NCBI GenBank assembly: GCA_001819815.1
Contig: MHNO01000009.1
Coordinates: forward strand, 147,016 to 211,015
Length of the DNA stretch: 64,000 bases
Direction of reading: 5' to 3'
Origin: Candidatus Ryanbacteria bacterium RIFCSPHIGHO2_02_FULL_45_17b
GTDB lineage: Bacteria > Patescibacteriota > Minisyncoccia > Ryanbacterales > 2-02-FULL-48-12
The position numbers and the translations under genes are program-made. Under the pieces are notes generated by a model. It was not told where the DNA came from. It was given only the letters and a program-made list of their open reading frames with translations, and did not search any database. Below, one piece after another: positions 20,390-60,121 of the stretch (its first letter is position 1; every line of letters begins with the position of its first letter).

Positions 20390-21280
20390 TTACATTAATA
20401 ATATATAAACACCCGAAAACATAATTGTCGCCCCAATACACTTCTTAATCAGCATAGGTGCAGAAATATCCTCTTTGATAATATTTGGAATTAAAAAAGT
20501 GAGCAATGCGCCGATAATAATTGCATAAAAAGATTGCACCTGCATAATAACTGTAACTAAACCAGCGGAAGGAGCAATCACAAGGGCTTTTTTAATGACC
20601 ATCTGGCCAAAAAAATCTAAAACATTATTCCAAGAAAACCAGATATATTTTCTAATGGATGCTGTTTTTATTCCCTCGATAACTTGTCTCCGTACTGTTG
20701 GAATAATGAAAAGCGTAAGTCCAGCTAATGCAGAGCCCAACTCATCAAGCATTAAGTAATTCCAAAAAAACATTTTTGTCAGTCCGTAATCTATAAACAA
20801 GGTCATTACCGACCACATAAGAATTGCAATCAATATCATTCCAAGACCTTTGATAAAAACCCCTTTGGTTTTTTCAAACGAAATTATAGTTGCACCAGCA
20901 AGAACGATTACAAACCCAAAAAGCTCGTTTGGAGATAATGTTTGCCCCAAAAAGACGAAAGCCAAAATAGTGATTATGACAGGTATAAGTTTGAAAAGAA
21001 TTACAAGGGAGGAAGTATCACCTTGCTTAAGTGCTTTTCCATAGAAACCATAGGAATAAATAAGTATCATACCAGTTGCAATCGGTATCAAAGAGTACAC
21101 GCTTAATTCTGGCATTCCTACAAATAGAAAAATTGCGGCAAAGAAAATACAACTCGTGATGGTTGAAAAGAAAACAAAATCAAAAATTCCCTTCGTATAT
21201 TTATCAAGGATATATTTATCCACAAAATTAGATAAGGCCCAAAATAGTGGCGCAAGTAAGGAAAGAAAAATCCAATTCAT
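20390..21280 (-). CDS. EamA/DMT-family transporter
   Basis: Ten TM helices in two EamA-like halves. Confidence 0.6.
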   Translation of the reverse strand: MNWIFLSLLAPLFWALSNFVDKYILDKYTKGIFDFVFFSTITSCIFFAAIFLFVGMPELSVYSLIPIATGMILIYSYGFYGKALKQGDTSSLVILFKLIPVIITILAFVFLGQTLSPNELFGFVIVLAGATIISFEKTKGVFIKGLGMILIAILMWSVMTLFIDYGLTKMFFWNYLMLDELGSALAGLTLFIIPTVRRQVIEGIKTASIRKYIWFSWNNVLDFFGQMVIKKALVIAPSAGLVTVIMQVQSFYAIIIGALLTFLIPNIIKEDISAPMLIKKCIGATIMFSGVYILLM

Positions 21281-21525
21281 ATCATTTTATCAATCAAAGC
21301 TAACTTCTTTTCACGAGTAAGACTTTTTATGTTGCTTTCGCGTTTCAGCGCCTCATTCCGTGTGGCAAATTCCTCCACATGAACAATTTTTTGGACGCCT
21401 TTTGCCCGCGTGTACTTTGCGCCTTCCCCTTCCTTATGTTCCAAAAACCGCCGTTTATAATCGTTGGTAGAACCTGTATAAAGACTCCCATCTTTGCATT
21501 GGAGAATGTATACGTAGTAGGTCAT
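21277..21525 (-). CDS. GIY-YIG nuclease-domain protein (stand-alone)
   Basis: YYVYILQCKDGSLYTGSTNDYKRRFLEH. Confidence 0.7.
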   Translation of the reverse strand: MTYYVYILQCKDGSLYTGSTNDYKRRFLEHKEGEGAKYTRAKGVQKIVHVEEFATRNEALKRESNIKSLTREKKLALIDKMI

Positions 21526-21732
21526 AGAAATAATCCCTCGTATTTCCATAAGACAACCTTATGGAAATTTCCTGCTGTGGATAACTTTGACTTTTAGGTT
21601 ATAAACTGTTATACTTGCTTTTTTCACAAGAAAAGGCACTTCCTTGGGTTCCGTCCCTTGGCAGTGCTTTTTCATTTACTGTAGCTTTTTTTGTAAATTA
21701 TCCATAAATACGATCCTTACTCCCAACCGCAG

Positions 21733-21803
21733 CTGCCAGACTAGGATTCGAACCTAGATACCCGCCTCCAAAGGGCGGTGTCCTACCATTAGACGATCTG
21801 GCA
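21733..21803 (-). tRNA. tRNA-Gln (anticodon UUG)
   Basis: Cloverleaf read by hand on the minus strand: acceptor TGCCAGA/TCTGGCA, D-arm GTCT/GGAC, anticodon stem CCGCC/GGCGG with loop CUUUGGA, T-arm CTAGG-TTCGAAT-CCTAG, discriminator G, no encoded CCA. Confidence 0.7.
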
Positions 21804-21817
21804 ATAGATTTTATAGA

Positions 21818-22168
21818 TTACTCCTCTGTAAGTAATGATATAAGTTGCTCTATAACTTCTTCCAAAATATTCTGTGGAACCTTTTCTATATATACAGCTT
21901 TCCGTGTTTGCCAATCTGCAATACGTACTTGATCTACAAGAATAACTCCTCCTATCTTTTTCCCTTGCGCCCCTAACAAAACTTCAAATGGATACCCTTT
22001 TACATGCGACGTTACAGGACATATAAGCGCGAGCTTCATCCGGCCATTGTACGATTTTGGAGACAATACTAAAGACGGCCGGCGTCCCGCTTGCTCATGC
22101 CCTCGGTGTGGATCAAGAGTAACCCATATTATATCTCCTCTTGCAGGTATATAGGATTGCTTTACCAT
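21818..22168 (-). CDS. mazF: Type II toxin, PemK/MazF family
   Basis: GDIIWVTLDPHRGHEQAGRRPSLVLSP and CPVTSH blocks. Confidence 0.75.
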   Translation of the reverse strand: MVKQSYIPARGDIIWVTLDPHRGHEQAGRRPSLVLSPKSYNGRMKLALICPVTSHVKGYPFEVLLGAQGKKIGGVILVDQVRIADWQTRKAVYIEKVPQNILEEVIEQLISLLTEE

Positions 22169-22413
22169 ATTTCCCGCCCAACAGGACCCACCCAACCTTT
22201 CCACGCATCTCCATGTTTGTTTTCGTCCGTAATTTTAGCAACTCGTTCTTTTAAAGTAATCTTTTTCTTAGCTTTGATGGGTCGAATGGATATCTGTTCA
22301 TCTTGAACGAATACTTGAACATCACTCCCTTCGTGCAAGCTCAACTCTTCCGAAACATGTTTCGGAATGTGCACCCCTAAACTATTGCCCCACATTTTTA
22401 TTTTTGTAGTCAT
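22162..22413 (-). CDS. mazE: Type II antitoxin, MazE/AbrB-fold
   Basis: MTTKIKMWGNSLGVHIPK swapped-hairpin motif; 7-bp overlap with mazF. Confidence 0.7.
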   Translation of the reverse strand: MTTKIKMWGNSLGVHIPKHVSEELSLHEGSDVQVFVQDEQISIRPIKAKKKITLKERVAKITDENKHGDAWKGWVGPVGREIW

Positions 22414-42544: not shown

Positions 42545-43447
42545 CTACCTGCCGCCCGCCGATTCAAATAAATCCGCATACCGTTTAAAATTGTCCGCGA
42601 TAGTATGGGCAGTCTCCTCGCGAGTCGCATGTTTCTCGTGGTAATGAAGAAGCGGCTCCTTGAAGACCGTCCGCCCCACAGCAAAACCAATGACCCCATC
42701 TACGCGCGCCGAAGCACCCAGCCATACGCGCACTTTCTCATCGCTTTCCCCACGCCCTAAAACTACAATACCAACATCATTTCTGCCACCGCTTCGCGCC
42801 GCCTCGGCAATAGACCCCATGTCTTCTGACGACTCTAATCCTTCCAATTTCCATACGTCTGGTTCCACGCCATCCGCTTGCAACTCCCTCACAGCAGACC
42901 TCATGAGCCCCGCACGCATTGTCTTTTCATATACATCTTCGCTCCCGCCGCATGATGCAAGCTGTTCAGAAGTAGCTGGCACAAGCAATTCAAAAAGAAA
43001 CTTGTATCCTTCTTTGTGACAATACGCACTCAACATGACAAGTTTTTCTATTTGTTTTTTATTTCCTTGGGTATCTCCCCCCGTATTATATCTTACAAGA
43101 ACCTTTACATAGTCTGGCGAAAACTTTTCGATATGCTCCGCAAAATCATCCCCATACTCAAAATCGAACTCATCCTGTCCGGATTTTTCTATGGTAAGAA
43201 TACGCGTTACGCCGCGTTCTCTTGCTTCGTTTTGGATGCGCGATCCAAATTGTTCATCAACTAAAATGGCAGCCGCATGGGATGGTACACCTTGCTCCAA
43301 TGCCATAAGAAACCCTTCATATATAATATGCTTATAATCGGAAAGAACGGCAGTGGCCGTCTCATCCACATGTGCCGGATCAAATCCGAACATTTTAATA
43401 AAAGATCCGCGATGATCAAAAGGCAAAATATATAACTTTTTTCTCAT
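42545..43447 (-). CDS. DUF2090-like putative class I aldolase (IolC-associated aldolase family)
   Basis: LYILPFDHRGSF start. TIM-barrel aldolase-like, not verified. Confidence 0.4.
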   Translation of the reverse strand: MRKKLYILPFDHRGSFIKMFGFDPAHVDETATAVLSDYKHIIYEGFLMALEQGVPSHAAAILVDEQFGSRIQNEARERGVTRILTIEKSGQDEFDFEYGDDFAEHIEKFSPDYVKVLVRYNTGGDTQGNKKQIEKLVMLSAYCHKEGYKFLFELLVPATSEQLASCGGSEDVYEKTMRAGLMRSAVRELQADGVEPDVWKLEGLESSEDMGSIAEAARSGGRNDVGIVVLGRGESDEKVRVWLGASARVDGVIGFAVGRTVFKEPLLHYHEKHATREETAHTIADNFKRYADLFESAGGR

Positions 43448-43463
43448 ATGTTTGAGTTACGTT

Positions 43464-43559
43464 CTACCCCATTGCGTATACTAAACATGTTCTTTACGGC
43501 CAACAGGTGTATACATAGAAGGACGTCGTAGAACATGTTTAGTATACGCAATGGGGTAG
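43464..43559. repeat. 30-bp perfect inverted repeat (43464-43493 / 43530-43559), 36-nt loop
   Basis: ctaccccattgcgtatactaaacatgttct ... agaacatgtttagtatacgcaatggggtag; between glpX stop and the aldolase-like gene start. Confidence 0.6.
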
Positions 43560-43585
43560 TAATAATTTTGTAATCCACAATTATA

Positions 43586-44560
43586 TTACGTCTCTAGAAT
43601 ATGCTTTGTTTTTATAAACCGAAGCGTGCGAGGCAATAAAGACATCACTACCGAGTGTGTAATTATACTCTCCCCTTCAAACACCACCCCATCTGCGAGA
43701 GGCCCATCAATAACGCCTGTAGCGGTAAATGTAACATACTCGCTTTTGGCAAGATCTCGTGCAGAAAAAACTTTTTTTGCTTCCCGCGCGCCTAATTTTT
43801 TCAGTTCTTTCTCCTGACGTTCATCACTCGGCTTCCAGCGGCACATAATCTCACCATCCAGACAACGCAACGCCGCGGCCGCTAACACCGCTTCCGTACT
43901 TCCCCCGATGCCCAAGAGCATATCTATAGGAGACTCAGGCAAACAAGTGGCTATCGCCATCGCGACATCCCCATCGCTAAACAATCGCACGCGCGCTCCT
44001 GCGTGTCGAATTTGTTGAATCAAGTCCTCATGGCGCGGCCGGTCAAGCACAGCAACCGTAACTTCTCCCACGTCTTTCCCCAAAACATGCGCGACTTTTT
44101 TAATTGCGGTTTTTACCGGCATATCAAGATCAACCGCCCCGCGCGCTTCCGGCCCGACGGCAATTTTTTCCATATATCCGTCAAACGCTTTGTAAATAGA
44201 ACCGCGCGGACCTGTGGCAATAACCGCAAGCGCGTTCGGGCGTCCGTATGCCACACTATCCGTACATTCTAATGGATCCACCGCAATATCAACCAATACG
44301 CCTCGACCCGTTCCCAGCTTTTCCCCCACAAAAAGCTCCGGTGCCTCATCCTTGGCCCCTTCCCCGATAACAACCTCACCGGAAAAATCAATCTTATTGA
44401 ACACCTTCCGCATAGCATCCACCGCCGCCCTATCAGCCGCTTTTCCATCTCCCCTGCCAACCCAGCGGGAAGCCGCAATGGCCGCTTGTTCTGTCGCATT
44501 CAAAAACTCAAGCGCGAGACCCATATATGGTATGGTTTTCATAATAGACCTGTTTATCAT
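43586..44560 (-). CDS. glpX: Fructose-1,6-bisphosphatase class II
   Basis: LALEFLNATEQAAIAASRWVGRGDGKAADRAAVDAMR matches the GlpX N-terminus. Confidence 0.85.
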   Translation of the reverse strand: MINRSIMKTIPYMGLALEFLNATEQAAIAASRWVGRGDGKAADRAAVDAMRKVFNKIDFSGEVVIGEGAKDEAPELFVGEKLGTGRGVLVDIAVDPLECTDSVAYGRPNALAVIATGPRGSIYKAFDGYMEKIAVGPEARGAVDLDMPVKTAIKKVAHVLGKDVGEVTVAVLDRPRHEDLIQQIRHAGARVRLFSDGDVAMAIATCLPESPIDMLLGIGGSTEAVLAAAALRCLDGEIMCRWKPSDERQEKELKKLGAREAKKVFSARDLAKSEYVTFTATGVIDGPLADGVVFEGESIITHSVVMSLLPRTLRFIKTKHILET

Positions 44561-44611
44561 GTTCGTAACGAAATCTAAACATGTAACTCTTCATTATTTT
44601 TGAGATGGGAT

Positions 44612-45616
44612 CTAGATTTTCTTCGGTCTATAATCTGCCGGCGCGTTTTGGAGATATTCTTCAAGTTTCTCACGCGTTAGAAGCCCTTCCCGCGCGCCAA
44701 TATATTGTACTACAGACATGGAGTTTATCGGAGCCCACCGAAGCGCGTCTTCCATACTCATTCCCAAAGCAAGCGCCACCACAAACGTGGAAGAAAATGC
44801 GTCTCCCGCGCCCGTGCGTTCAAAAGGCGGCTTTTCGTCGGGGTATGGAGGCATAAAATAAACAGACGCTCCATCAGAAGCATATGCCCCTTTCGGACCA
44901 TCGGTAAGCACGGTAATTTTTGGTCCTTGCTCGTGCATGGCGGCCATAAGCGCCTTTATATCGTGCTCTTCGGGTTTTTGAAGAACGCGCTGGTACTCTT
45001 CTTTGTTACAGATAAATACCTCCGCCCGTTCATATATTTTTTTCAACCCCTCAATGCCCATCTTCATTTGAAAGGTGCCGGGTTGAAACGCAAGTTTAAT
45101 TTCGGGATGGCTTTCCAAATAACGAAGAGCGGTTTCATGAAATTCAGACGAATTGCCACCCAAAGAAGAAAGATACACCCATTTGGGGGAATCAAAATTG
45201 GGAAGCGCGTATGGATATTGCTCATGCTTAATTAAAATCGTACGATCGTCTTCGTACCACAACACATAGTGATAATTTGTTTTTTGACCGCGGTGGATAG
45301 AAATAAATTCGGTGCCTACTTTTTCTGCCGCAAGCACATCCAGACATTCCTTGCCAAAATAATCACTTCCCACATTGCTTACAAGCGCACTTTCCAAACC
45401 CAACCGGGTAGCTGAAACCGCCGCATTAGCGCTATTTCCCACCGCAGGAACAATATACACTTCTTCATAAGGAACTTTGTCGGCAAACCGAAAACATATT
45501 TCGCATTTTTCTTTATCTACCGAACAATGCACCGATGCATCTTTGATGCGTATAAATGCATCCGTTACCGTATCACCAATAGCAACAAAATCATACTGTT
45601 TTTGAGACATAGACAT
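44612..45616 (-). CDS. PfkB-family carbohydrate/nucleoside kinase
   Basis: GAGDAFSSTFVVALALG ATP-binding motif and N-terminal GG-like motif. Confidence 0.7.
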   Translation of the reverse strand: MSMSQKQYDFVAIGDTVTDAFIRIKDASVHCSVDKEKCEICFRFADKVPYEEVYIVPAVGNSANAAVSATRLGLESALVSNVGSDYFGKECLDVLAAEKVGTEFISIHRGQKTNYHYVLWYEDDRTILIKHEQYPYALPNFDSPKWVYLSSLGGNSSEFHETALRYLESHPEIKLAFQPGTFQMKMGIEGLKKIYERAEVFICNKEEYQRVLQKPEEHDIKALMAAMHEQGPKITVLTDGPKGAYASDGASVYFMPPYPDEKPPFERTGAGDAFSSTFVVALALGMSMEDALRWAPINSMSVVQYIGAREGLLTREKLEEYLQNAPADYRPKKI

Positions 45617-45617
45617 A

Positions 45618-46319
45618 TCACTCTAATGTTATTTCGGTTAATCCGTCAACGGCGATAGTCACAAACGCACTCCTGTTTTTTGCGACCACCGTGCCGCGAA
45701 GCTCAAAATAATATGTTTCCCCTGCAGAAATTTGTACCTGGGGCGGGCCTTGATCAAAAAGAATAGATACCGCACTTGACGCTGAATCAAGAAAGCCAAT
45801 TTGCTTTCCTACGCGATTTTCTTTAGTAGTAGTATTGCGAAGAAATGCCGGAACAGAAAAAAGATCATCAGAATACGCGTATACCTCAAGATCTTTTATG
45901 GAAACATCAGAAAGAGAAATAGCGTATGTTGTGGAAGGAATGATTGTATCTACCGCGCCTCCTGTAATAGAAAAACGGTACAAGATTGCAAGCGGTTGTG
46001 AAAGATACACGGAAGGAAGCGAAACAAATTTCCATACAGCTTCGGTTGATGTAGAAACAGCTTTTTCTTCTGTCTTGGCAGGTACGGACGACTCAACAAC
46101 AGTGCTTTTTTCTGGAGGTCGCGCCTCTTCGGCAATAATCTCCAAAAGGCGAACCTGTATGCGCGCAACGGCGGCAATAATCTCATTAAGCTGTTGTTGG
46201 ATACTTTCAAGGAGCGACGCGTGCGTGGAAGCGGCCGAGGGTGAAGTCGGTACCGAGAGCGCAAAAAGTAACATAACGACGACAATAAAATAGAAAGATC
46301 TTGAATAAAAATGTTTCAT
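45618..46319 (-). CDS. Hypothetical secreted protein
   Basis: Signal peptide; no motif. Confidence 0.4.
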   Translation of the reverse strand: MKHFYSRSFYFIVVVMLLFALSVPTSPSAASTHASLLESIQQQLNEIIAAVARIQVRLLEIIAEEARPPEKSTVVESSVPAKTEEKAVSTSTEAVWKFVSLPSVYLSQPLAILYRFSITGGAVDTIIPSTTYAISLSDVSIKDLEVYAYSDDLFSVPAFLRNTTTKENRVGKQIGFLDSASSAVSILFDQGPPQVQISAGETYYFELRGTVVAKNRSAFVTIAVDGLTEITLE

Positions 46320-46343
46320 GCGTAGTTTTTTATTAGCTGCAGA

Positions 46344-47342
46344 CTACTTCCTTTGTACCACTCTTTTAACCGCCGCAACAATAGAAGATACCCCCATGCC
46401 AAATTTTTCTAAAAGTTCGGCAGGTTCGCCCGATTCACCAAACCGATTCTGCACGCCGACAAACTCCATGGGAACCGGATGTGTTCGCGCCAACACTTCC
46501 GCCACCGCAGACCCCATACCGCCCATTACCTGATGTTCTTCCACCGTTACAACCGCGCCTGTACCTTTGGCGGCCGCTATAATCGTCTCCTCGTCCATAG
46601 GTTTTATTGTGTGATTATTCACCACAAGAACGCCGATGCTTTCTTTCTCAAGTTCTTGGGCGGCAAGGATCGCATTGTGCACTAAAGACCCGCACGCGAT
46701 TATAGCTACAAGTGGGGGTGGGTTTGTCGGTTCCCACACGCGATATGCTTTCCCTATTTGAAACGGCGTTTCTGGCGTCGTAAACACGGGTGTTTTTTCA
46801 CGCGCAAGACGGATATACACAGGCCTTGACAACCCCGAGGCCGCAACCGTTGCTTTTCGGGCTTCATGTGCGTCGCATGGCGCAATAACGGTCATGTTGG
46901 CAATGGGGCGCATAATGGCAATATCTTCAATTGCCTGGTGAGTCGCGCCGTCGGGACCAACTGAAACCCCCGCGTGAGACCCCGCAATTATCACATGTCG
47001 TTCATTGTAGCATATTGTGGTGCGAATTTGTTCCCAATTACGCCCGGGGCTGAACATGGCGTATGAAGATATAAAGGGAATTTTTCCACACGCCGCCATA
47101 CCAGAAGCAACCGCGGCCAAATTCTGTTCGGCAACCCCGATTTCCACAAACCGTTCGGGATATCTTTTAGCAAACGCTTCCATTTTAGTTGATTCGGTCA
47201 GATCGGCGCACAATCCCACCACATTTTGATTTGCATCCGCGGCTTCCACCAAACCCAAACCAAACCCCTCACGAATAGGTTTTTGATCCAAAGATTTCAA
47301 ATCAAGGATATCGGAAACAAGTTTTATGTGCTCTGGAATCAT
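46344..47342 (-). CDS. Transketolase, C-terminal (pyrimidine-binding + C-domain) subunit
   Basis: GFGLGLVEAADANQNVVGLCADL...VGVAEQNLAAVASGMAACGKIPF. Confidence 0.85.
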   Translation of the reverse strand: MIPEHIKLVSDILDLKSLDQKPIREGFGLGLVEAADANQNVVGLCADLTESTKMEAFAKRYPERFVEIGVAEQNLAAVASGMAACGKIPFISSYAMFSPGRNWEQIRTTICYNERHVIIAGSHAGVSVGPDGATHQAIEDIAIMRPIANMTVIAPCDAHEARKATVAASGLSRPVYIRLAREKTPVFTTPETPFQIGKAYRVWEPTNPPPLVAIIACGSLVHNAILAAQELEKESIGVLVVNNHTIKPMDEETIIAAAKGTGAVVTVEEHQVMGGMGSAVAEVLARTHPVPMEFVGVQNRFGESGEPAELLEKFGMGVSSIVAAVKRVVQRK

Positions 47343-47348
47343 AGAAAA

Positions 47349-47942
47349 CTAATCAATAAATTTGAACGTGGAGAGAAATTGTTTAAAATCTTTTTTGTTT
47401 TTGGTTGATGTCTTGTACAACGTAGTTAGCATGGCTGTCATTCCATCAGCATAATTCATTTGGGCTGTTACTGTGGTTGAATCTCCCCAATCAATCATCC
47501 AAGCCCCAGCCAACTCACATCTCATGTCTTGAGGGTAAGCTTCACAATAAGTTATACCAGCAAGCGTTAAATCTATAGTAGATATCACAATAATATCATC
47601 CCCACCCTCAATAAGATGAATAGGCCACTTCGACAAACTTATCGACCACGAAGATGGATACTTAAACTCAAACCCATACTCTTCATTGAGGTATGTTTTC
47701 CAGTCTGATGTGTCATCTTGTGTAATGCTTGGCTTTGCACATTCCTCAAACTCGCAATTTTGCCCCGTGCGCCCTACATACGAGCCATCAGGGCAGAGTT
47801 TTGCTTCCAGCGTGCACGAGATTCGAAAAGAGTGCTGTGCCTTGCGGGGAACGCCAAAATAACTTGCTACTGCAATAATGCTCACTGCCATAAGTAACAA
47901 AGCAACCGCGACAACATGGCTTAGTTTTTCTCGTGCAAACAT
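47349..47942 (-). CDS. Secreted hypothetical protein, paralog A of a three-member family (C-terminal STFKFID)
   Basis: N-terminus MFAREKLSHVVAVALLLMAV is identical to paralog B; shared W(K)TY(L/H)NEEYGFEF(K/R)YP block; ends FKFID. Confidence 0.55.
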   Translation of the reverse strand: MFAREKLSHVVAVALLLMAVSIIAVASYFGVPRKAQHSFRISCTLEAKLCPDGSYVGRTGQNCEFEECAKPSITQDDTSDWKTYLNEEYGFEFKYPSSWSISLSKWPIHLIEGGDDIIVISTIDLTLAGITYCEAYPQDMRCELAGAWMIDWGDSTTVTAQMNYADGMTAMLTTLYKTSTKNKKDFKQFLSTFKFID

Positions 47943-47965
47943 ATTTTTATGTAAAGTTAACTCGA

Positions 47966-48250
47966 TTATTGATTTTTATAAACTCGATCATGATGAGCAA
48001 AATCTATGAATCTAAGTTCACCATTATAAAACTCATAAACCAAAACAAAAGAACCGACATGTAATCGCCGTCGATTTTTAAGCGTGTAACGAAGAGGTTT
48101 TCCCAAAATTGGTTCGCGAATTATTTTCTCCATCTGGTTTGAAAGTTGTTCAAACAGATTATGATCTTTCTTTTTACATTTTCTCACCACTCGCTCAAAA
48201 TTAGGTGAGTAAACAATATGACTAACGTTGGGTGAACGAGAATCCTCCAT
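47966..48250 (-). CDS. Type II toxin, RelE/ParE family
   Basis: RRRLHVGSFVLVYEFYNGELRFIDFAHHDRVY matches the RelE/ParE C-terminal consensus. Start set at the internal ATG. Confidence 0.65.
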   Translation of the reverse strand: MEDSRSPNVSHIVYSPNFERVVRKCKKKDHNLFEQLSNQMEKIIREPILGKPLRYTLKNRRRLHVGSFVLVYEFYNGELRFIDFAHHDRVYKNQ

Positions 48251-48474
48251 CACAGATTCGTTAGCCACTTTTTCATCTCGGCAATAGATGTAAATGACCG
48301 CCCTTCTTTTTTGTCCAAATTATGGCTTACGCGCTCCCATTTTTTGAGTATATCTGAACGTATAAAACGCTCATCATCCATAAGAACGACTTTTTTCAAT
48401 AAATCCAGTTCCTTTTCTACTTTCTCCTGCCGGTGAAATAAACTATTCAACTGTTTTGATGTAACTATAGGCAT
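48250..48474 (-). CDS. Putative antitoxin partner of RelE/ParE
   Basis: 74-aa ORF immediately upstream and abutting the toxin; no independent motif. Confidence 0.45.
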   Translation of the reverse strand: MPIVTSKQLNSLFHRQEKVEKELDLLKKVVLMDDERFIRSDILKKWERVSHNLDKKEGRSFTSIAEMKKWLTNL

Positions 48475-48542
48475 ATATACATACTACTGTAAATATTGAT
48501 AAGACACCAGTATATCATTCATGACCATGCAAAATGAGAAAA

Positions 48543-49394
48543 TTAATCAATAAATTTAAAAGTGGAGAAAATGCTTTCGAGTAATGATTTATTTTCTTTG
48601 TTTCCAACAGTTTGAGTATGCAAGAATATTTGAAAATTGTCCTTGCATATTTCTTTTTCCTCAAACGTAGCCACGCCTGGCCCGTATGAATCTTGAATCC
48701 AGTTTGCGTTTATAGTCTTGGGATCGCAGCCTTTTTGTATTACTATAGTCATGCCTCCTGAAGGTTCTATGCCACCATGCCCCCATTGATCTTGAAAAAA
48801 ACTTTGGACTCCACTGTTGCCTATCTGCCATGTAGGAGGATATCTAAACTCAAACCCATACTCCTCATTATGGTAAGTTTTCCATGAGAGAGCGCTACTT
48901 TCTTTTGGATCATCCTCAATATATCTTGGCACTTGTAAAATACTATACGACTTTAATATTGCGCCGTCGCTCGCCAAACCCTCCGCACGATACCAATATG
49001 TTCTATCACCTATCACAGAATCAACAACCTGTTGAGGCATAGAATCAGTAACCGGCAATGAAAGCACTTTGAGCCATGGGCCATTTTTTAATTCCGATCG
49101 ATAAAACACTAGACTCTTGGCACGAGAAGGAAGATCAGCCCAGTATAAAATAATACTATCTCCCATGTTGAAAGCCAACAAATCTCTCTCAGCGTTTAAT
49201 ACCGTTTGATTGATCGCTTGCGGACTCGGACATTCCGTCAATGTACAATCGGGAACGAGGCGACCAACAGCGCTAGCAAAAGAATTTTCTTTTCGATCAA
49301 CAAGACCAAAATACTCCACAAACGTGATAACCTGCACGGCGACAAGTAACAAAGCAACCGCGACAACATGGCTTAGTTTTTCTCGTGCAAACAT
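48543..49394 (-). CDS. Secreted hypothetical protein, paralog B (C-terminal STFKFID)
   Basis: First ~50 nt identical to paralog A; WKTYHNEEYGFEFRYPPTW block; ends FKFID. Confidence 0.55.
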   Translation of the reverse strand: MFAREKLSHVVAVALLLVAVQVITFVEYFGLVDRKENSFASAVGRLVPDCTLTECPSPQAINQTVLNAERDLLAFNMGDSIILYWADLPSRAKSLVFYRSELKNGPWLKVLSLPVTDSMPQQVVDSVIGDRTYWYRAEGLASDGAILKSYSILQVPRYIEDDPKESSALSWKTYHNEEYGFEFRYPPTWQIGNSGVQSFFQDQWGHGGIEPSGGMTIVIQKGCDPKTINANWIQDSYGPGVATFEEKEICKDNFQIFLHTQTVGNKENKSLLESIFSTFKFID

Positions 49395-49403
49395 ATATCA
49401 CGA

Positions 49404-50063
49404 TTAGTTAATAAACGTAAATGTAGAGACGAGAGCATCAAATAATTCACGACTGCCGAGTACGTTCATACTGGCATGCCGATTACCATGAGAAATCAAG
49501 GCGCGATAATTGCTGACGATACCTAAATAAGTCCCCACTGAATCATATACCGCTACTGCCGTATCTCCCACAATAATATTATTATTGTTTACCGAATAAG
49601 ATACCGCCGGATCGCCTTTGCGGCCAAGCCGCCCTACCGCAAAATAGAGTCCATTGTCCTCCACAAAAAATACCTTTCGGATTGCTTCTTCCCGCGATAT
49701 TTCCCTAAGGACTTCTATACTTGCAACATTATTCACATATCCTTTCTTTTGAAACAGAGGATCAAGAAAATCCACTTGCATATCTTGCTCTTTTATCTGC
49801 CAGGCGACAGGATAGGAAACAGAAAATTTAAGAGCGGGACTGGCATATGTTTGCATCATAGTATCAGTATACCCTTCAAGTTCTTTTTCCAATGTCCGCA
49901 GTTGTTGAAAATAAGGCGCGTTGTCAAGCGCATCAAGGTTATCCACAGCATCGTTTGCTTTGTCGATTAAAAAGAGCGACATGTACCCCGCGATTGCTGT
50001 CATTACAAAAAATGAAAGAGCGGAACGCTGGCCTCTGGTAAAATTTGACGAAATACTATTCAT
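49404..50063 (-). CDS. Secreted hypothetical protein, divergent paralog C (C-terminal STFTFIN)
   Basis: Signal anchor; (S)YPVAWQI and STFTFIN echo paralogs A and B. Confidence 0.45.
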   Translation of the reverse strand: MNSISSNFTRGQRSALSFFVMTAIAGYMSLFLIDKANDAVDNLDALDNAPYFQQLRTLEKELEGYTDTMMQTYASPALKFSVSYPVAWQIKEQDMQVDFLDPLFQKKGYVNNVASIEVLREISREEAIRKVFFVEDNGLYFAVGRLGRKGDPAVSYSVNNNNIIVGDTAVAVYDSVGTYLGIVSNYRALISHGNRHASMNVLGSRELFDALVSTFTFIN

Positions 50064-50991
50064 GCTCGCTTGTTATGACACCGCCAAGCGTCCGCAGTTC
50101 CGCTAAAAACCGCTTGCCCTGTTCTTGCTTTGGAATTTTATCCTCGGGACCTTTTCCGGGCGGGTTTCCGTGCCACCGGTAATCAAATTCAATTTCGGGA
50201 ATTCCTTTGCCCGGAATAGTGTGCGCGATAATGCAAACGGGTCGTTCGTAAATGGCGCGCGCTTCTTCGCACGCATTTATAATTTCATGAAAATTATGCC
50301 CGTTTATTTCAAGCACGTGCCAATTAAACGCCTCGTATTTTTCACGAAGCGGTTCCAGGGGCATAATGTCTTCCGTAATGCCGTCTATTTGAATATTATT
50401 GCGGTCAATAATATTGGTAAGATTTGCGATCCGCAGTTTTCCTGCAAGCATAATTGCTTCCCATGTATTTCCCGCGTCATGTTCGCCGTCTGAAGTAAAA
50501 CAATAAACCTGATTCGGTTTTGCATCAATTCGCAATGCTATCGCCATACCAACTGCTTGCGACAAACCGGATCCCAACGGCCCTGATGTAGTCTCTATGC
50601 CCGGAAGTGAAGTCCGATGCGGATGGCCCTGCAGGCGCGTTCCCAGTTTACGCAATGTCCGTAATTCTTGGAGAGAAAAATATGCCGCATGCGCAAGAGT
50701 CGCGTAAAGCACCGGGCAAATATGCCCATTCGAAAGTACCAAACGATCGCGATCTTCCCAATCGGGGTTGTCTGCATCATGCTTCAATATATGAAAATAC
50801 ATAGCGGTGAAAATATCCGCCATGCCTAAAGGACCCGCCGTATGTCCCGATCCTGCCTCAATGAGCATCTCAATTACGGACACGCGAATATCGTTTGCCT
50901 TTCGTTCGAGAAATTGTAATTTTTCTTGAGTCAACATGTATTCCTGATATAAAGCCCAGCTCCTATTCAACTTCCGGCTGATAATATTCAT
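50056..50991 (-). CDS. Transketolase, N-terminal (TPP-binding) subunit
   Basis: GSGHTAGPLGMADIF...GHPH; TPP motif SDGEHDAGNTWEA. Confidence 0.85.
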   Translation of the reverse strand: MNIISRKLNRSWALYQEYMLTQEKLQFLERKANDIRVSVIEMLIEAGSGHTAGPLGMADIFTAMYFHILKHDADNPDWEDRDRLVLSNGHICPVLYATLAHAAYFSLQELRTLRKLGTRLQGHPHRTSLPGIETTSGPLGSGLSQAVGMAIALRIDAKPNQVYCFTSDGEHDAGNTWEAIMLAGKLRIANLTNIIDRNNIQIDGITEDIMPLEPLREKYEAFNWHVLEINGHNFHEIINACEEARAIYERPVCIIAHTIPGKGIPEIEFDYRWHGNPPGKGPEDKIPKQEQGKRFLAELRTLGGVITSEHE

Positions 50992-53338
50992 TCATGCGTA
51001 CCGGAATGGGAATGACTGCCGCCAAGTTGTCTCCATCAAATTCAATTTTTAACATAAGACCTTCCCGGGTCTCAGCAGAAAAACCCTGGTCAAAAACAAA
51101 ATTTCCCAAACTATACGCAATAACACCCCCGCGGTATTCTTCAATGCCCTCTACCACATGCGGATGATGCCCTATTACCACGCGCGCGCCCGAATCAATT
51201 GCTAAACGTGCAAGATCCTTTTGGCGCGCATTCGGCGCTTGTTCGTATTCTTCTCCAAAATGAAACGACACTATTAGTATATCAACCTTCTTTGCAGCTT
51301 GTAATACGGACTTTTCCACATATGTCTTGCCCGCATTCCCTGCGGGTACTGCCGCAATGCCCGAAAGAGCCTCTTTCGATTGCATCCACAAAGGACCTAC
51401 ATCACTAAATGCAAGAAATCCAATACGCTTCCCGCGAACATCAAACACAGTCGGCTCCAAAGATTCTTTCTCGTTCCATCCCCCGCCCGCGTACGCGACC
51501 CCCGCATGTTGCAGACGGCGCATGGTGTCTTCGAACGCATCACGACTCCAGTCGCCCATGTGGTTATTTGCAAGCGAGACAATATCAAATCCGGCTAACG
51601 CAAGCGTACTCGCTACCTGCGGGTCCATGCGAAAAGAATACGCACTCCCCACATTGGTCCCCTTGTCGGACACCGGACCTTCTAAATTCGCAAATGTTAT
51701 ATCCGCGTTCGCAAGAACATCGCGCGTATAAAGAAATGGAAACATCCAGTCATCGTTGCCGTATTTATGAATTACCTGCTCCACCCCGCGGTTCATCATG
51801 ATATCGCCCGTAAAAAGCATGGAAAGAGAGCGAGACGAATCCTGAAGATCTTCCGCGGTATATTCCACCTGTTGACTCTCGAGCGAAGATTCCAAACCGT
51901 ATGAAAAATTCTGTTTCACCCAGAGGCGCAATCTCTCCACATCAGATTGAAGATTATCCGAACCCAGCACCACAATAGCTATATGACGTTCGGCAAATTC
52001 GCCAAACGGCACCGAAAAAACAGATACGATTGTTTTCTTTGCTTCCGGTATAAAACCTGTCTTGCCGCCTTCAAATGAATTTTTGGAAGCAAAGGGATGA
52101 ATGTTGCGCCACGTTTTATGACTCCGCATTGCCGTCATTTCAAGAAGCGACCGTTTATTATCCCACAAATGCCGAACAAGTTTGAACGTGTCCAGGGCCG
52201 TAGATTTATTTTCTGGATCAAGCCCCGACGGCTCCGCATAGAACGTGCGCACCAATCCAAGGCTTTCCGATTTTTCGTTCATCAGCCGCACAAATTGTTC
52301 GGTGCCCAGCTGACGCGCAATAACATACGCCGCATCATTTGAAGAAGAAAGCAACAACGGCCACAAAAGCTCTCCCGCTTCCATGCGATCTCCCACGCCC
52401 AGCCCGCCCGCTTCTCCATACGCCGCAACATCTGCGTTCGTTACCTCAACCTTCTCAAATTGATTCACTGCTTCCACGGAAATAAGAGCCGTCATTAACT
52501 TGGAAAGAGAAGCGATAGAATGTATCTCCTCAGAATTTTTTTCAAAAAAAAGAAAACTGTTTTCCAGATCTCCCACAAGCGCGGCGTACCCTGAAATAGC
52601 CGGCGGAGGTGAAAACGTATCAATTCCCCGATATCCCAATCGCTCTTCTTCGCGCGTATCAGCTGAGGCAAGAATCAATGCAGGACCGGCGCCATTTGTT
52701 ACAAATAAGGGCGTACCCTTATCAACCAACGAAAAAAGTTTCCTGGCATCTTCCTCGGAAAGCCGAATACACCCGCCGGAGAAACCTTGCGGCACAGGGC
52801 TTCCGTCGGCATAACGAGGCCATCCATGAATAAAAAAGTTTCCAAAAAACTGCATGCTATACGGCATCCAAACATTCCCCATAGTAGAATAATGATTTTC
52901 TTCCTTTGTCTTTATACGATAAGAACCCGTTGGTGTTTCCCATAAAGAGCCGGGCTTTCCCTTGGACACTATAGGAAATTCTGTTTCTAATTTTCCGTCG
53001 CGATAGAGACGTATCATCATTTCGCGCAAATCTGCAAAAAGCGCAACTCCGCTCTCCGGCACAGAGAATGACGGCTGGGAAAGAATCCGTGTCTCATACA
53101 CCTGCGGCCGATTTTTCATAAGAGACGTGTCCGCCACGCGCACAGTTTCTTCACCGCTTCCACCAACACCCTTCAGCGTTTCTGTACCCGTGATAAAAAT
53201 ATAATTGGATGCCCATAACAATGACGTATCAGAAGCAATGTGTTTTATAAAAAAAATAGGAATAGCCATACACACGCCTCCTAACAGGAATACAAAAATA
53301 CCCCACAATACATGTGAACGTTCCTTATGCGGTTGCAT
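50963..53338 (-). CDS. Tri-domain cell-wall enzyme: L,D-transpeptidase (YkuD) + D-Ala-D-Ala carboxypeptidase (PBP5/S11-like) + CapA-type metallophosphoesterase
   Basis: YkuD HGW...GGCIRL; S11 motifs SLSK (SxxK), SSSND (SxN), GGKTG (KTG); CapA motifs TGDIMMNRG and ANNH. One uninterrupted 791-aa ORF with an N-terminal TM. Confidence 0.65.
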   Translation of the reverse strand: MQPHKERSHVLWGIFVFLLGGVCMAIPIFFIKHIASDTSLLWASNYIFITGTETLKGVGGSGEETVRVADTSLMKNRPQVYETRILSQPSFSVPESGVALFADLREMMIRLYRDGKLETEFPIVSKGKPGSLWETPTGSYRIKTKEENHYSTMGNVWMPYSMQFFGNFFIHGWPRYADGSPVPQGFSGGCIRLSEEDARKLFSLVDKGTPLFVTNGAGPALILASADTREEERLGYRGIDTFSPPPAISGYAALVGDLENSFLFFEKNSEEIHSIASLSKLMTALISVEAVNQFEKVEVTNADVAAYGEAGGLGVGDRMEAGELLWPLLLSSSNDAAYVIARQLGTEQFVRLMNEKSESLGLVRTFYAEPSGLDPENKSTALDTFKLVRHLWDNKRSLLEMTAMRSHKTWRNIHPFASKNSFEGGKTGFIPEAKKTIVSVFSVPFGEFAERHIAIVVLGSDNLQSDVERLRLWVKQNFSYGLESSLESQQVEYTAEDLQDSSRSLSMLFTGDIMMNRGVEQVIHKYGNDDWMFPFLYTRDVLANADITFANLEGPVSDKGTNVGSAYSFRMDPQVASTLALAGFDIVSLANNHMGDWSRDAFEDTMRRLQHAGVAYAGGGWNEKESLEPTVFDVRGKRIGFLAFSDVGPLWMQSKEALSGIAAVPAGNAGKTYVEKSVLQAAKKVDILIVSFHFGEEYEQAPNARQKDLARLAIDSGARVVIGHHPHVVEGIEEYRGGVIAYSLGNFVFDQGFSAETREGLMLKIEFDGDNLAAVIPIPVRMNEYYQPEVE

Positions 53339-53981
53339 GACGTCGCAAATCTTCTATCGCGCTTTTAATATCAATGTGTTCTCTATCGGAGGGAGAAAAA
53401 ATGGCAGAACCGGCAACAAGCAATGAAGCGCCTGATTGCACAATAGATGCGACTGTTGTCGTATTTACCCCTCCATCTACCTCAATGGCACAGGAAGGAC
53501 ACGCGTTATGAAGCGCGGTAATTTTTTGAAGCGTGTCTGGTTGAAACGACTGGCCAGAACGTCCGGGCGTTACCGCAAGTGTCTGCACGAGATCTATTTT
53601 GGAAAGATACGGCAACACGACATCCGCCGATGAATTAGGTAAAACCGCCATGCCCACCCGAACATCCGAAGACCGACATGCGCGAATAACCACATCAGGG
53701 TCGCGTGATGCTTCACGATGAAAAATAACCCGCCGCACAATAGGCCGCAACCATTCCCCAATCCGTTCATCAATATCGGCAATCATCAGATGCACTTCCA
53801 CCAATAGAGGTGTTTGCAAAGCAAGCAGATCTTCTGGATTGTGCCACAACTGTATGTCCGTAAACGAACCATCAGCAACGTCTATGTGCACCCACGAAAC
53901 ATACGGCTCCACCGCTTCAATTTTTTTCTTTACTTCCGTAAATGTCTCCGCATTTATAGAAGGAATAATTTCGATTTCGCT
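53325..53981 (-). CDS. rpe: Ribulose-phosphate 3-epimerase
   Basis: IIPSINAETF...VHIDVADGSF; TIM-barrel Rpe blocks. Start at the internal ATG. Confidence 0.8.
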   Translation of the reverse strand, partial: SEIEIIPSINAETFTEVKKKIEAVEPYVSWVHIDVADGSFTDIQLWHNPEDLLALQTPLLVEVHLMIADIDERIGEWLRPIVRRVIFHREASRDPDVVIRACRSSDVRVGMAVLPNSSADVVLPYLSKIDLVQTLAVTPGRSGQSFQPDTLQKITALHNACPSCAIEVDGGVNTTTVASIVQSGASLLVAGSAIFSPSDREHIDIKSAIEDLRRHATA

Positions 53982-54130
53982 CATATAGAAAGTATAAAGG
54001 AAAAAGATAAAAGAAAAAGGTGCCGCACGCGACACCTTTAGATACTCTTATGTATCTTATTTACGCCATTCCCTGTACATGAAGATCATGAACAAGATAC
54101 CACCTAAGACAACTACCATTTCCAACCAAT

Positions 54131-54331
54131 TCATGTCTGTTTCTCCTGTTTATTAAGCAACGGCCTCTCGTCACCCGCTACTGCGCAAAGGCCAAGCGCG
54201 AGTAGTGTGGAAACGAATGACACAGCAACTCCGATTGCACATCCTGTTGACCCTCCAATACGCCACCCAATTCCGCCAAATATTGTGCTTGTTAAAACCA
54301 ATAGCACAATATAGAACATGCGCACATACAT
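54131..54331 (-). CDS. Small membrane protein
   Basis: ~66 aa, two TM helices. Start trimmed to avoid an 80-bp overlap with the upstream ORF. Confidence 0.3.
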   Translation of the reverse strand: MYVRMFYIVLLVLTSTIFGGIGWRIGGSTGCAIGVAVSFVSTLLALGLCAVAGDERPLLNKQEKQT

Positions 54332-54332
54332 G

Positions 54333-54800
54333 TCATACCTCCGTGTCTTTTCCACAAAAATTTTGCTGCCGTGAAGGTCCAATGATTGTAGTACTTTCAA
54401 GAGGATGTTCATTACTCAACTTCTGCCAGCCGAACTCAACTGCAAGAACTACCTTTTTGTTTTTAAGTTTAACTCCAAAATCTGTGCTTTTACCTCCAAC
54501 TTTAAACAGCCACCCTGTCGCAGTTTTTTTACATTTATAATAGCCCTCGACCCCACCCTGCCCCACTTGCCCTTTTAACATAAAACTCCCTTGTTCTAGG
54601 ATCAGGTTTATATTTGGGGTGGTGGTCGCCAAAACACAGAGTTCTTGTAGCATCAATCTGAATATGGTCGAGTCGTCTACCAAACTCTCTTTTTCAAGAA
54701 AATGTGCCTTAAATATTCTTGATGAGAAGCAATAGACGGTCTCCCAAAGTGCTTTGCGTAACTCTCCAACTACATATTCCTTCTGATACCAATGTGTCAT
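54333..54800 (-). CDS. Hypothetical protein
   Basis: ORF between rpiB and the small membrane protein; no motif. Confidence 0.35.
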   Translation of the reverse strand: MTHWYQKEYVVGELRKALWETVYCFSSRIFKAHFLEKESLVDDSTIFRLMLQELCVLATTTPNINLILEQGSFMLKGQVGQGGVEGYYKCKKTATGWLFKVGGKSTDFGVKLKNKKVVLAVEFGWQKLSNEHPLESTTIIGPSRQQNFCGKDTEV

Positions 54801-54825
54801 AAAGACCTCCTTTACTTCGAAGGTA

Positions 54826-55272
54826 TCATGAATTATCAATCTTGTCAATCCGTCGCTGATGGCGTGGTTCATGAGAAAACGGCGTCTCAAGCCACAATTT
54901 AATTGCGCGCTTTGCTTCTTCCGTATCCACAAACCGCGCGCCGATAGCAAGTATATTTGCGTCATTATGCTCGCGGGAAAGCGTTATAATACGGTCGTTC
55001 TTTCCATACCACACCACAGCCCGCACGCCGGAAACACGATTTGCCGCTATTGCTTCCCCTTCACCAGAACCGCCAAACACGACACCCACCGCACCTTCTT
55101 CTCTCGCAACATGTTCTGCGACCGGCCGAATAAAATCAGGGTAATCATCATTAGGCGCTTCTCTATTTGGACCTAAATCAGCAATACTATACCCTTCCCC
55201 AACCAAAAAATGGCGCATCTCTTCCTTCAACTTAAACCCCGCATGGTCAGATGCAATATATATTGTTCTCAT
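54826..55272 (-). CDS. rpiB: Ribose-5-phosphate isomerase B
   Basis: IYIASDHAGFKLKEE...GVVFGGSGEGEAIAANR, RpiB/LacAB family. Confidence 0.8.
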   Translation of the reverse strand: MRTIYIASDHAGFKLKEEMRHFLVGEGYSIADLGPNREAPNDDYPDFIRPVAEHVAREEGAVGVVFGGSGEGEAIAANRVSGVRAVVWYGKNDRIITLSREHNDANILAIGARFVDTEEAKRAIKLWLETPFSHEPRHQRRIDKIDNS

Positions 55273-55348
55273 ATTGATCTCTATAACGTAACTACCCAAA
55301 TTGTATACCATTATGTTATAATGGTATAGGGATATATATTATAAATTA

Positions 55349-59512: not shown

Positions 59513-60121
59513 TTATTTTTTTGCTATTATCTGAATCCAATTTGTCTTACCAGAAGTCGTTATATTTTTGTAAACAATATGCAGTCCTACATTGATTACG
59601 TAATTTTCCATTTCTTCTAAAGTATAATAACTAAAAAACCTTTCGTATTCGTAGCCATAGTCATTTTCTTTTAGTAGTTCTTCATCAAAATTGCCTGGTT
59701 TTTGTTCTTTTACTGCTACGCAGAAATAACCATCTGGTTTAAGAGGAGCTATGATGTTTTTAAGCACATCTGGTACCTCTTTTTTGGGGATATGTAGTAA
59801 GACTGCATGAGCAAGCACTCCATCAAATATTTTTTCGAGATCAAGTGGTTGTTTAATATCCTTTACAAAAAAATGACCTGCTGACGCCTGTTCCTTAGCA
59901 AGAGCGATCATTTCTTCAGAGAAATCAATTCCAATAACCCTAAAACCCTTTTTGATTAAATACTTAGATTTTATAGCAGCTCCACATCCAATATCTAAAA
60001 TTAATGAGTTCGACTTAAGGAAGGAGAGGTACTTATCAATACCACCTATCCACCATATATCTTCTTCATGGTCTTGCATCCAATCTTTAGCTATCCTGTT
60101 GTAGGTTAATCTAAGATTCAT
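59513..60121 (-). CDS. Class I SAM-dependent methyltransferase
   Basis: Motif I ILDIGCGAAIKSKYL; motif post-I VIGIDFSEEMI. Confidence 0.7.
   Translation of the reverse strand: MNLRLTYNRIAKDWMQDHEEDIWWIGGIDKYLSFLKSNSLILDIGCGAAIKSKYLIKKGFRVIGIDFSEEMIALAKEQASAGHFFVKDIKQPLDLEKIFDGVLAHAVLLHIPKKEVPDVLKNIIAPLKPDGYFCVAVKEQKPGNFDEELLKENDYGYEYERFFSYYTLEEMENYVINVGLHIVYKNITTSGKTNWIQIIAKK

Follow-up and report, generated by a model that had tools for sequence, protein, structure and literature searches.

Why are the genes for the two halves of an essential enzyme held apart by a block of accessory genes in an ultra-small groundwater bacterium, and how long has that block been there? The question is raised by positions 46344-50991 of a 64-kb stretch of DNA (the window, a term used here for the whole stretch that was analysed) from a Ryanbacteria-like Parcubacterium of the candidate phyla radiation (CPR). 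In this locus, the genes for the N-terminal (tktN) and C-terminal (tktC) halves of transketolase (TK) are separated by three genes for membrane-anchored proteins (parA, parB and parC) and a toxin-antitoxin (TA) pair of the RelE/ParE family, and the order on the minus strand is tktN, parC, parB, a 74-aa antitoxin-like gene, the RelE/ParE toxin gene, parA and tktC. All seven open reading frames (ORFs) were found, all on the minus strand, where a preliminary description of the locus had placed them. That description took the five intervening genes for an AT-rich insertion between normally adjacent genes, stabilised by an addiction module. We consider it fairly probable that the block is instead a long-resident accessory islet, which turns over by duplication and recombination and in which TA modules act as selfish stabilisers. 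Fifteen contigs of independent assemblies, from ENA and JGI, carry the identical locus with the same gene order, and it is therefore neither a chimera nor an assembly artefact; one source attributes the product of parA to Candidatus Ryanbacteria.

Gene order at the transketolase junction in related genomes

Eighty loci around TktN homologs of GTDB species representatives (cited here by number, as L001) were compared, and the neighbouring genes were located by tblastn. Both halves were found in 75 Parcubacteria loci, and the gap between tktN and tktC was 60 bp or less in only 25 of them, 61-300 bp in 13, 301-1000 bp in 24 and more than 1 kb in 13. Parcubacteria do not keep the genes for the two halves of this essential enzyme side by side, only one third of genomes having them adjacent, and the claim that they normally adjoin fails in this phylum. 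This agrees with the published account of split TK genes, which may be adjacent or not, archaea included (PMC7661550).

The space between tktN and tktC (the slot) contains members of the same PsbP/Mog1-fold family as in the window, in 1 to 7 copies, in the closest relatives (L001, L002, L089, L091 and L100/L101) and in a sister clade (L098, L013 and L005). In L001 (TktN 89% identical to that of the window), the slot contains a parC ortholog, a paralog, a ribbon-helix-helix (RHH)-PIN module, a further paralog, a tktC pseudo-fragment and DUF6922-AbiEii. In L002 (81%), a parC remnant is followed by two paralogs, a 95-aa ORF with AbiEii, a paralog, RHH-PIN, a paralog, MNT-HepT, a paralog, a DUF6036 nucleotidyltransferase (NTase) and a paralog, which makes six to seven paralogs in all. 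The slot of L089 (87%) holds a parC remnant, DUF6036 and one paralog, and that of L091 (88%) holds parC, a paralog, a 91-aa RHH-like ORF with PIN, and another paralog. Between tktN and tktC of L098/L099 there are a family member, a 75-aa antitoxin with ParE, and a second family member. Orthologs of parC lie directly 3' of tktN in L001 and L091, and remnants of 48-51 residues were found in L002, L004, L089 and L100.

In a neighbour-joining tree of the concatenated TktN and TktC proteins, the window groups together with L001, L089 and L002. The sister group is formed by L098, L013 and L005, with the family in the slot, and by L023 and L018, in which the gap is small and the family is missing; apart from that of L009, every slot with the family in the tree falls in these two groups. 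In the next outgroup, some genomes have the halves directly side by side, for example L043 and L048 (4-12 bp apart). Since the halves are adjacent in the outgroup, genes were inserted between them at some point, as the preliminary description had supposed. A single recent event does not fit the presence of the same family, slot and parC in all of the closest relatives and in the sister clade. The islet is not absent from close relatives, being present in L001, L002, L089, L091, L100/L101 and the sister-clade loci. The ParE toxin of L098 is 72% identical to that of the window, compared to 69% for the Tkt proteins, and the RHH-PIN modules of L001 and L002 share 68% nucleotide identity compared to 74-78% for the tkt genes. 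A recent transfer of RHH-PIN between L001 and L002 was rejected on the latter values. The same family in the same slot, together with the divergence of the L098 ParE and of RHH-PIN, shows that the islet is old and that some of its TA modules, at least, are old too. The arrangement is in this sense ancestral, although the five genes are not identical across genomes and only the family and parC are held in common.

The base composition was compared with that of 55 window genes (GC content 0.441 ± 0.039). The paralogs were ordinary (GC 0.41-0.42, z -0.6 to -0.8), the antitoxin-like ORF was merely low (0.37, z -1.8), and the toxin gene was the sole clear outlier, with a GC content of 0.34 and of 0.24 at third codon positions (z -2.6 and -2.9, respectively). 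The tkt genes, at 0.47-0.50, were on the high side of the window genes. The block can be called AT-rich in that its mean GC content is below that of its tkt flanks and that of the toxin gene is low, but the paralogs are ordinary against the 55 genes. A similar offset, with islet genes mostly below the tkt genes, was found in L001, L002, L098 and L101, and the offset is therefore no evidence of recent foreign origin.

In other lineages, the slot is occupied by pilin-like, CBS, 23S_rRNA_IVP, Bro-N, GIY-YIG, MazG-like and small cysteine-rich membrane proteins. A membrane protein of about 97 aa recurs in the slot of a Yanofskybacteria-like clade (L052:5591-5884, L022:9087-9386, L031:4285-4581, L028:6320-6622, L016:9728-10021 and L030:8481-8837); it has the N-terminal motif MHGNC.C.HHW and the C-terminal motif C.CGDC.RCK, and belongs to no Pfam family.

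Homogenised gene ends and direct repeats

The genes parA (47349..47942) and parB (48543..49394) carry at their 5' ends two direct repeats, at 47883..47944 and 49335..49396 respectively, which match at 59 of 62 positions; the first 51 coding nucleotides are identical. The 3' ends are 89% identical over 35 nt (47343-47377 compared to 48537-48571), and an internal block of 63 nt (WKTY.NEEYGFEF.YP) is 81% identical. The identical 5' ends and similar 3' ends quoted in the preliminary description are therefore real. In the codon alignment, there were no synonymous differences among the 17 identical codons at positions 1-17, compared to 28 among 60 elsewhere. At the background rate, the chance of such a result is 0.53^17, or approximately 2e-5, and the 5' tract therefore shares a younger ancestry than the remaining gene. 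Gene conversion, or else a partial duplication of recent date, is the likely origin of the identical tract, and the suggestion that the termini were homogenised or recently duplicated is borne out for the 5' ends.

The same pattern was found on a larger scale in L002, where five paralogs are 77-90% identical over their 5' 290-313 nt and have cores that cannot be aligned as DNA. Over the first 60 nt, paralogs of the same genome share 95% identity in the window and 78-95% in L002, compared to 62-78% for paralogs of different genomes. These findings show concerted evolution of the paralog 5' ends. In the window, the two direct repeats are spaced 1452 nt apart and bracket the body of parB and the TA pair.

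L098 and L099, which come from the same population, differ inside the array. The family member 3' of ParE is a single ORF of 253 aa in L098 (4295-5056), whereas in L099 (4295-5170) it is split into ORFs of 133 and 149 aa with approximately 114 extra bases, which indicates population-level structural variation.

The toxin-antitoxin pair and its counterparts in other slots

The toxin gene of the window (minus strand) extends from 47966 to an ATG at 48250 (94 aa) or to a GTG at 48268 (100 aa), and the ATG start is more likely. The protein matches ParE_toxin (PF05016) at 1.9e-7 and 32 bits, compared to a cut-off of 23. It has 128 homologs with PF05016, named RelE/ParE toxins in their sources and mostly from Parcubacteria, the best of which other than itself is 73% identical. 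The 74-aa antitoxin-like ORF (48250..48474, minus strand) is its putative partner, and its stop codon overlaps the toxin ATG by one base (TGATG). Homologs of this ORF, 62%, 49% and 35% identical, lie directly 5' of a homologous toxin in L096/L097, L101 and L113, respectively, and an equivalent of 75 aa occupies this position in L098. The ORF had no match in Pfam, PADLOC or PDB sequences (none in PDB better than E 0.5); a PDB sequence search with the toxin returned nothing useful, and the PADLOC models matched neither protein. The 68-nt spacer 5' of the pair (48475..48542, minus strand) is the longest of the block and contains a weak hairpin (-13 kcal/mol). It is presumed to be the promoter and operator site of the pair; a consensus promoter scan of this region did not rise above chance.

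Five kinds of TA module were found in the slots of relatives, namely ParE, RHH-PIN, AbiE, MNT-HepT and DUF6036. The distance from the end of a TA or NTase module in the slots to the downstream start, whether of a paralog or of tktC, is -8 to +34 nt without exception. Where a paralog comes next, it is -8 to +23 nt away in approximately ten cases that include all five types, and the only sizeable spacers of the slots (45-153 nt) are those 5' of TA modules. Lying directly 5' of a paralog or tktC start, each module has direct repeats on both sides, made of paralog or tktC 5' sequences, and the TA module of the window does lie inside such a pair. By a rough estimate, there are about ten TA/NTase modules in approximately 23 kb of slot DNA from six genomes, compared to one (MazEF, 21818..22413) in the other 61 kb of the window. 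Homologous ParE pairs with a family member directly 3' are also found away from the tkt slot: in L097, flanked by a DsbA-like gene and GAPDH, and in L113, 3' of pfkB.

The PsbP-like protein family

Each of the proteins ParA, ParB and ParC has one N-terminal hydrophobic helix (Kyte-Doolittle maxima 2.0-2.6). Against PsbP_2 (PF18933, cut-off 27 bits), ParA scored 27.4 bits (3.9e-6) and ParB 26.5 bits (7.6e-6), with only the first hairpin matched; no Pfam match was obtained for ParC. ParA has 860 homologs, nearly all of them from Parcubacteria, and the family has a common architecture: a membrane anchor, a four-cysteine linker motif (CT.EAK.CPDGS.V.R.G.NCEF..C), and then a domain with a conserved first hairpin (WKTYRNEEYGFE.KYP), a hypervariable middle and a conserved last strand (ILSTFKFI).

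An AlphaFold2 model of ParA (pLDDT 82) was matched by Foldseek to BT_1490, cyanobacterial (CyanoP) and plant PsbP, the type VI secretion system (T6SS) immunity protein Tsi3, Apa and Mog1, with TM-scores of 0.34-0.52 across the fold matches. For CyanoP, PsbP and BT_1490, the probability was 1.0 with E values of 2e-4 to 1e-3 and TM-scores of 0.34-0.48. According to this model, ParA, the only member modelled well enough, has a PsbP/Mog1 alpha/beta-sandwich fold. By analogy with other proteins of the fold, PsbP-like proteins of this kind may have binding or scaffold roles outside the cytoplasm, and diversifying selection may act on the hypervariable cores at the cell surface.

ParA and ParB (the latter with an additional insert of approximately 90 aa) align as clear paralogs. 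parC (49404..50063, minus strand) encodes a clade-specific membrane-anchored protein with only six homologs among 5.8 billion proteins; a model made from the six-sequence alignment had a pLDDT of 38.6 and was too poor for a fold search. Its tblastn matches to the family had E values of only 0.05-0.18. In a profile-profile comparison by hhalign, a probability of 94% and an E value of 1.4e-7 were obtained over 136 columns that cover the whole domain. On this result, the description of three paralogous signal-anchored proteins holds, with ParC as a distant member.

In the wider family, the upstream neighbours (42 loci) are mostly housekeeping genes, such as those for TyrRS, ClpP and FtsK, and so are the downstream neighbours of 41 members (RecA and AspRS/LysRS). 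An obligate three-gene module of a TA pair and a paralog was rejected on this ground, and TA linkage is therefore a property of the arrays and not of the family. One lone member, on a Staskawiczbacteria-like contig (L094:7023-9119), lies between an FtsK/ORF6N pair and a recA gene with an intein that contains a LAGLIDADG endonuclease domain.

The split transketolase, its gene cluster and the neighbouring genes

Both TK halves are intact ORFs on the minus strand. tktN (50056..50991) encodes the thiamine-diphosphate-binding (PP) half (Transketolase_N, PF00456, 2.4e-60), and tktC (46344..47342) encodes the pyrimidine-binding (Pyr) and C-terminal domains (Transket_pyr, PF02779, 4.3e-39; Transketolase_C, PF02780, 6e-27). 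The two align over their full length with 75 homolog pairs. The gene callers used on the source contigs prefer a 293-aa start at approximately 50937 for tktN, whose product is 89% identical to that of L001. Separately produced halves reconstitute an active alpha2beta2 enzyme, as demonstrated for C. hydrogenoformans only (James et al. 2020, PMC7661550), and separate synthesis is therefore compatible with activity.

The genes of the locus are closely packed. tktN and parC overlap by 8 nt, and the spacers are 9 nt (parC to parB), 68 nt (parB to the antitoxin-like ORF), 23 nt (toxin to parA) and 6 nt (parA stop to tktC start). With seven co-directional genes, no spacer above 68 nt and no convincing terminator, tktC is probably co-transcribed with tktN through the islet, possibly helped by a TA promoter. 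A promoter and terminator scan of 43000-55500 was uninformative, with 20 promoter-like sites compared to 24 expected and 19 terminator-like sites compared to 14 expected.

The islet lies in a cluster of non-oxidative pentose-phosphate and gluconeogenesis genes made up of rpiB, rpe, an L,D-transpeptidase fusion, tktN, tktC, pfkB and glpX. The fusion gene (50963..53338, minus strand), between rpe and tktN, encodes a 791-aa protein with L,D-transpeptidase (YkuD), D-Ala-D-Ala carboxypeptidase (Peptidase_S11) and capsule-synthesis (PGA_cap) parts. This triple fusion is kept in the clade of the window, and remoter relatives have the PGA_cap part only. Directly 3' of tktC, a gene at 45618..46319 (minus strand) encodes a 233-aa signal-anchored protein with no Pfam match, which is found in the same position in L001, L002 and L089 (38-57% identity).

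Elsewhere in the window, a second accessory patch was found at 21277..22413 (minus strand). It contains MazE (22162..22413) and MazF/PemK (21818..22204) beside a tRNA gene (21733..21803), with a stand-alone GIY-YIG ORF (21277..21549) and a low-GC (0.34) EamA transporter gene (20390..21280). A low-GC (0.33) gene for a class-I S-adenosylmethionine-dependent methyltransferase (59513..60121, minus strand; PADLOC mad2, 1.4e-17) adjoins genes for a DUF5680 protein and MscL.

A probable long-resident islet and the points that weigh against it

The explanation that we favour is built on the anatomy of the locus, on the family assignments and on an arrangement that is conserved across relatives; a stabilising role of the TA modules and a surface function of the paralogs are what we infer beyond these. 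The PsbP-like family would have entered the tkt junction at the base of the clade and not recently. The array would then have expanded and contracted through tandem duplication and through recombination, either unequal or homologous, between conserved ends of the genes, with the variable cores diverging until they can no longer be aligned as DNA and the 5' signal-anchor ends being kept alike within a genome by gene conversion. Unrelated TA families would have lodged in the array repeatedly. If the identical 51-nt tracts of the window recombined, parB and the TA pair (1452 bp) would be lost and an intact parA regenerated; the loss of the antitoxin gene, with a toxin that outlives its antitoxin, would penalise the deletant cells, and the module would in this way protect both itself and its neighbour. 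In chromosomal integrons, it was found by experiment that promoter-bearing TA cassettes penalise cassette excision (PMC13108822).

Several findings weigh against this explanation. Homogenisation is uneven, as the paralog 5' ends of L001 are only 70% identical over 60 nt (81% over 285 nt). Members of the wider family are mostly single genes amid housekeeping genes, with no adjoining TA module. L009, which is remote in the neighbour-joining tree, also holds a family member in the slot, so that either a gain occurred there independently or the tree is unreliable. The antitoxin-like ORF falls in no recognised family (ParD, RelB, Phd or similar) in the Pfam, PADLOC and PDB searches, and the promoter and terminator scan stayed at chance level. 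Finally, the rpe-tktN and tktC-pfkB junctions are as variable as the tktN-tktC junction. The tkt junction is therefore no special site, a hot spot for insertion at this point was rejected, and TA modules may accumulate wherever non-essential DNA lies.

Alternative explanations

The variability of the neighbouring junctions would be expected if operon junctions simply tolerate accessory genes and the paralogs and TA modules are unrelated passengers, the latter with neither a stabilising nor a regulatory role. The miscellaneous slot occupants of other lineages and the activity of separately produced TK halves (PMC7661550) are in keeping with such neutral clutter. It is nevertheless unlikely, because the TA/NTase modules are concentrated in the paralog arrays (about ten in 23 kb compared to one in 61 kb), their position relative to the paralog starts is always the same, and L097 and L113 show the adjacency of ParE and paralog at sites other than the tkt slot.

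A somewhat smaller chance is given to a cassette system that operates with no integrase. The paralog 5' signal-anchor ends and 3' STFKFI ends, together with the tktC 5' end, would act as homology handles, and circles made of a core and a TA module would leave by recombination between repeats and re-enter the same or a related genome by a Campbell-type single crossover. Fragments of tktC bear on this. In L001 (13830-13978), a frame-shifted 5' pseudo-fragment of tktC (ending ...CADLW*) lies between the last paralog and AbiE, and the intact tktC follows AbiE. In L101 (723-848) and L100 (1221-1346), a 5' fragment (ending ...NPNV/GGILYKL) precedes an antitoxin-ParE pair and the intact tktC. The fragments comprise approximately codons 7-45 or 7-52, and the breakpoints of L001 differ from those of L100/L101. 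In its 3' part, the L001 fragment has a sequence type, GYG...AGEEN..VVALCADL, that is found in a different clade (L098 and L165). The order of fragment, insert and intact gene is the footprint expected from Campbell-type integration of a circle with a short homology arm; speculatively, TA-bearing units may move by homologous recombination through gene 5' ends. If the cassette system were real, these bacteria, which have no integrons, would possess an analogue of the integron based on homologous recombination, with TA modules both as its cargo and as the selective force that holds it together. As a separate observation, a GC-rich hairpin, CTGGATTCCCGCCTTCGCGGGAATGAC (translating as WIPAFAGMT or LRGND), is found directly 3' of paralog stop codons in relatives (L001:13795-13835, L101:665-705 and L002:5175-5215 and 9555-9590). 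The copies of L002 are degenerate and the window has none; the hairpin may act as a terminator or as an element of recombination.

We think it improbable that a TA module and the paralog downstream form a functional cassette, in which an autoregulated TA promoter would switch on surface variants when stress triggers the loss of antitoxin. The close spacing of -8 to +23 nt in about ten cases and five TA types, the sizeable spacers found only 5' of TA modules, the adjacency of ParE and paralog in three genomic contexts, and the promoters carried by integron TA cassettes (PMC13108822) all speak for it. However, TA-type toxin domains (AbiEii, NTase_sub_bind and ParE) were found 5' of only about 3 of the 42 wider-family loci, the promoter scan was at chance, and TA modules also lie 5' of tktC (L001 and L101).

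The original proposal, taken as a single AT-rich block of approximately 2.7 kb that was acquired horizontally and recently between normally adjacent tkt halves and is held there by an addiction module, is now very unlikely. In its favour, the halves are adjacent in outgroups, the TA genes are low in GC, and the gap has a lower mean GC content than the tkt genes on either side. It is largely refuted by synteny, as the family, the slot and the position of parC are the same in the closest relatives and the sister clade; moreover, the paralogs have an ordinary GC content for the genome, the offset between islet and tkt genes recurs in relatives, the nearest toxin homolog is only 73% identical, and no recombinase or other mobility gene was found among the Pfam-annotated genes within approximately 8 kb on either side.

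An interbacterial-defence locus, with the paralogs as diversified Tsi3-like immunity proteins against secreted peptidoglycan hydrolases, is the least probable explanation and a highly doubtful one, for although Foldseek matched Tsi3 (E 1.7e-3, TM-score 0.52 on target), the cores are hypervariable between conserved ends, the proteins are anchored outside the cytoplasm and a peptidoglycan-remodelling fusion gene is a neighbour, the matches to PsbP, CyanoP and BT_1490 are equal or better, the fold is generic for envelope proteins (Apa, LpqN and DcrB), the sequence identity to the fold matches is 11-15%, and no effector genes were found nearby.

Implications

On the explanation favoured here, of an islet long resident in the clade, the tkt junction of one clade has been the long-term host of a small, rapidly remodelled array of envelope-protein genes interleaved with five kinds of TA module. 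The preliminary description was right that the junction had been invaded, and its reasoning on repeats and the TA module was sound; the invasion proved to be ancient and clade-wide, the compositional argument was weak, and separated tkt halves are common in the phylum. For annotation, this is a warning that an AT-rich block between conserved genes does not amount to recent horizontal transfer unless synteny has been checked. As a small natural system, the locus lends itself to the question of how TA modules settle in repeat-bounded DNA and stabilise it with no integrases. It also bears on the diversification of surface proteins in CPR bacteria, which have a host-attached lifestyle and tiny genomes.

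Comparison with known systems

The nearest parallel is with the TA cassettes of chromosomal integrons, such as the Vibrio superintegron (Richard et al. 2024, PMC13108822). In both, unrelated TA modules stand amid small variable genes and are bracketed by recombining repeats, excision of a segment would remove an antitoxin gene, and the TA modules may supply promoters. In contrast to integrons, the repeats of the window consist of coding sequence from both ends of the genes of a single paralog family, so that recombination would be homologous, and arrays of this type are tiny (2.7-8 kb) and lie inside an essential operon. No integron integrase (IntI tyrosine recombinase) was present in the Pfam annotation of the genes within approximately 8 kb on either side, and no significant inverted repeats (attC-like sites) were found in 45500-51500, where the spacers are 6-68 nt, with no attC model run. 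With neither integrase nor attC-like repeats, an identity as an integron was rejected.

Orphan immunity-gene arrays of Bacteroidales, the acquired interbacterial defence clusters, also consist of tandem, diversified genes for small envelope proteins with conserved junctions, as here. The islet of the window differs from them in having no recombinase within approximately 8 kb, and an immunity function of its proteins is highly doubtful.

With the PsbP, PsbP_2 and Mog1-fold proteins (Tsi3, Apa, LpqN and DcrB), the family of the window shares borderline PsbP_2 matches in ParA and ParB, a fold assigned by model in ParA and a predicted anchoring outside the membrane. The TM-scores are only 0.34-0.52, and the architecture of anchor, four-cysteine motif and hypervariable middle is specific to Parcubacteria. 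The TA pair resembles type II RelE/ParE systems (PF05016) in its toxin, which scores above the Pfam threshold, in a small, translationally coupled upstream partner, and in the conservation of the pair together in at least four other loci; the antitoxin-like protein matched no described antitoxin family.

The split TK is divided in the same way as that of archaea and thermophilic bacteria, with PP on one polypeptide and Pyr and C on the other (PMC7661550). The host here is a mesophilic CPR bacterium, whereas that study held split-only TK to be confined to archaea and C. hydrogenoformans. A literature search found no paper that joins Parcubacteria, transketolase and split, and transketolase goes unmentioned in the paper on horizontal gene transfer in Patescibacteria; the clade-level variation in spacer content found here was previously undescribed. 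The locus is a combination of known themes: split-gene transketolase, RelE/ParE TA modules, PsbP-fold envelope proteins and TA-stabilised gene arrays.

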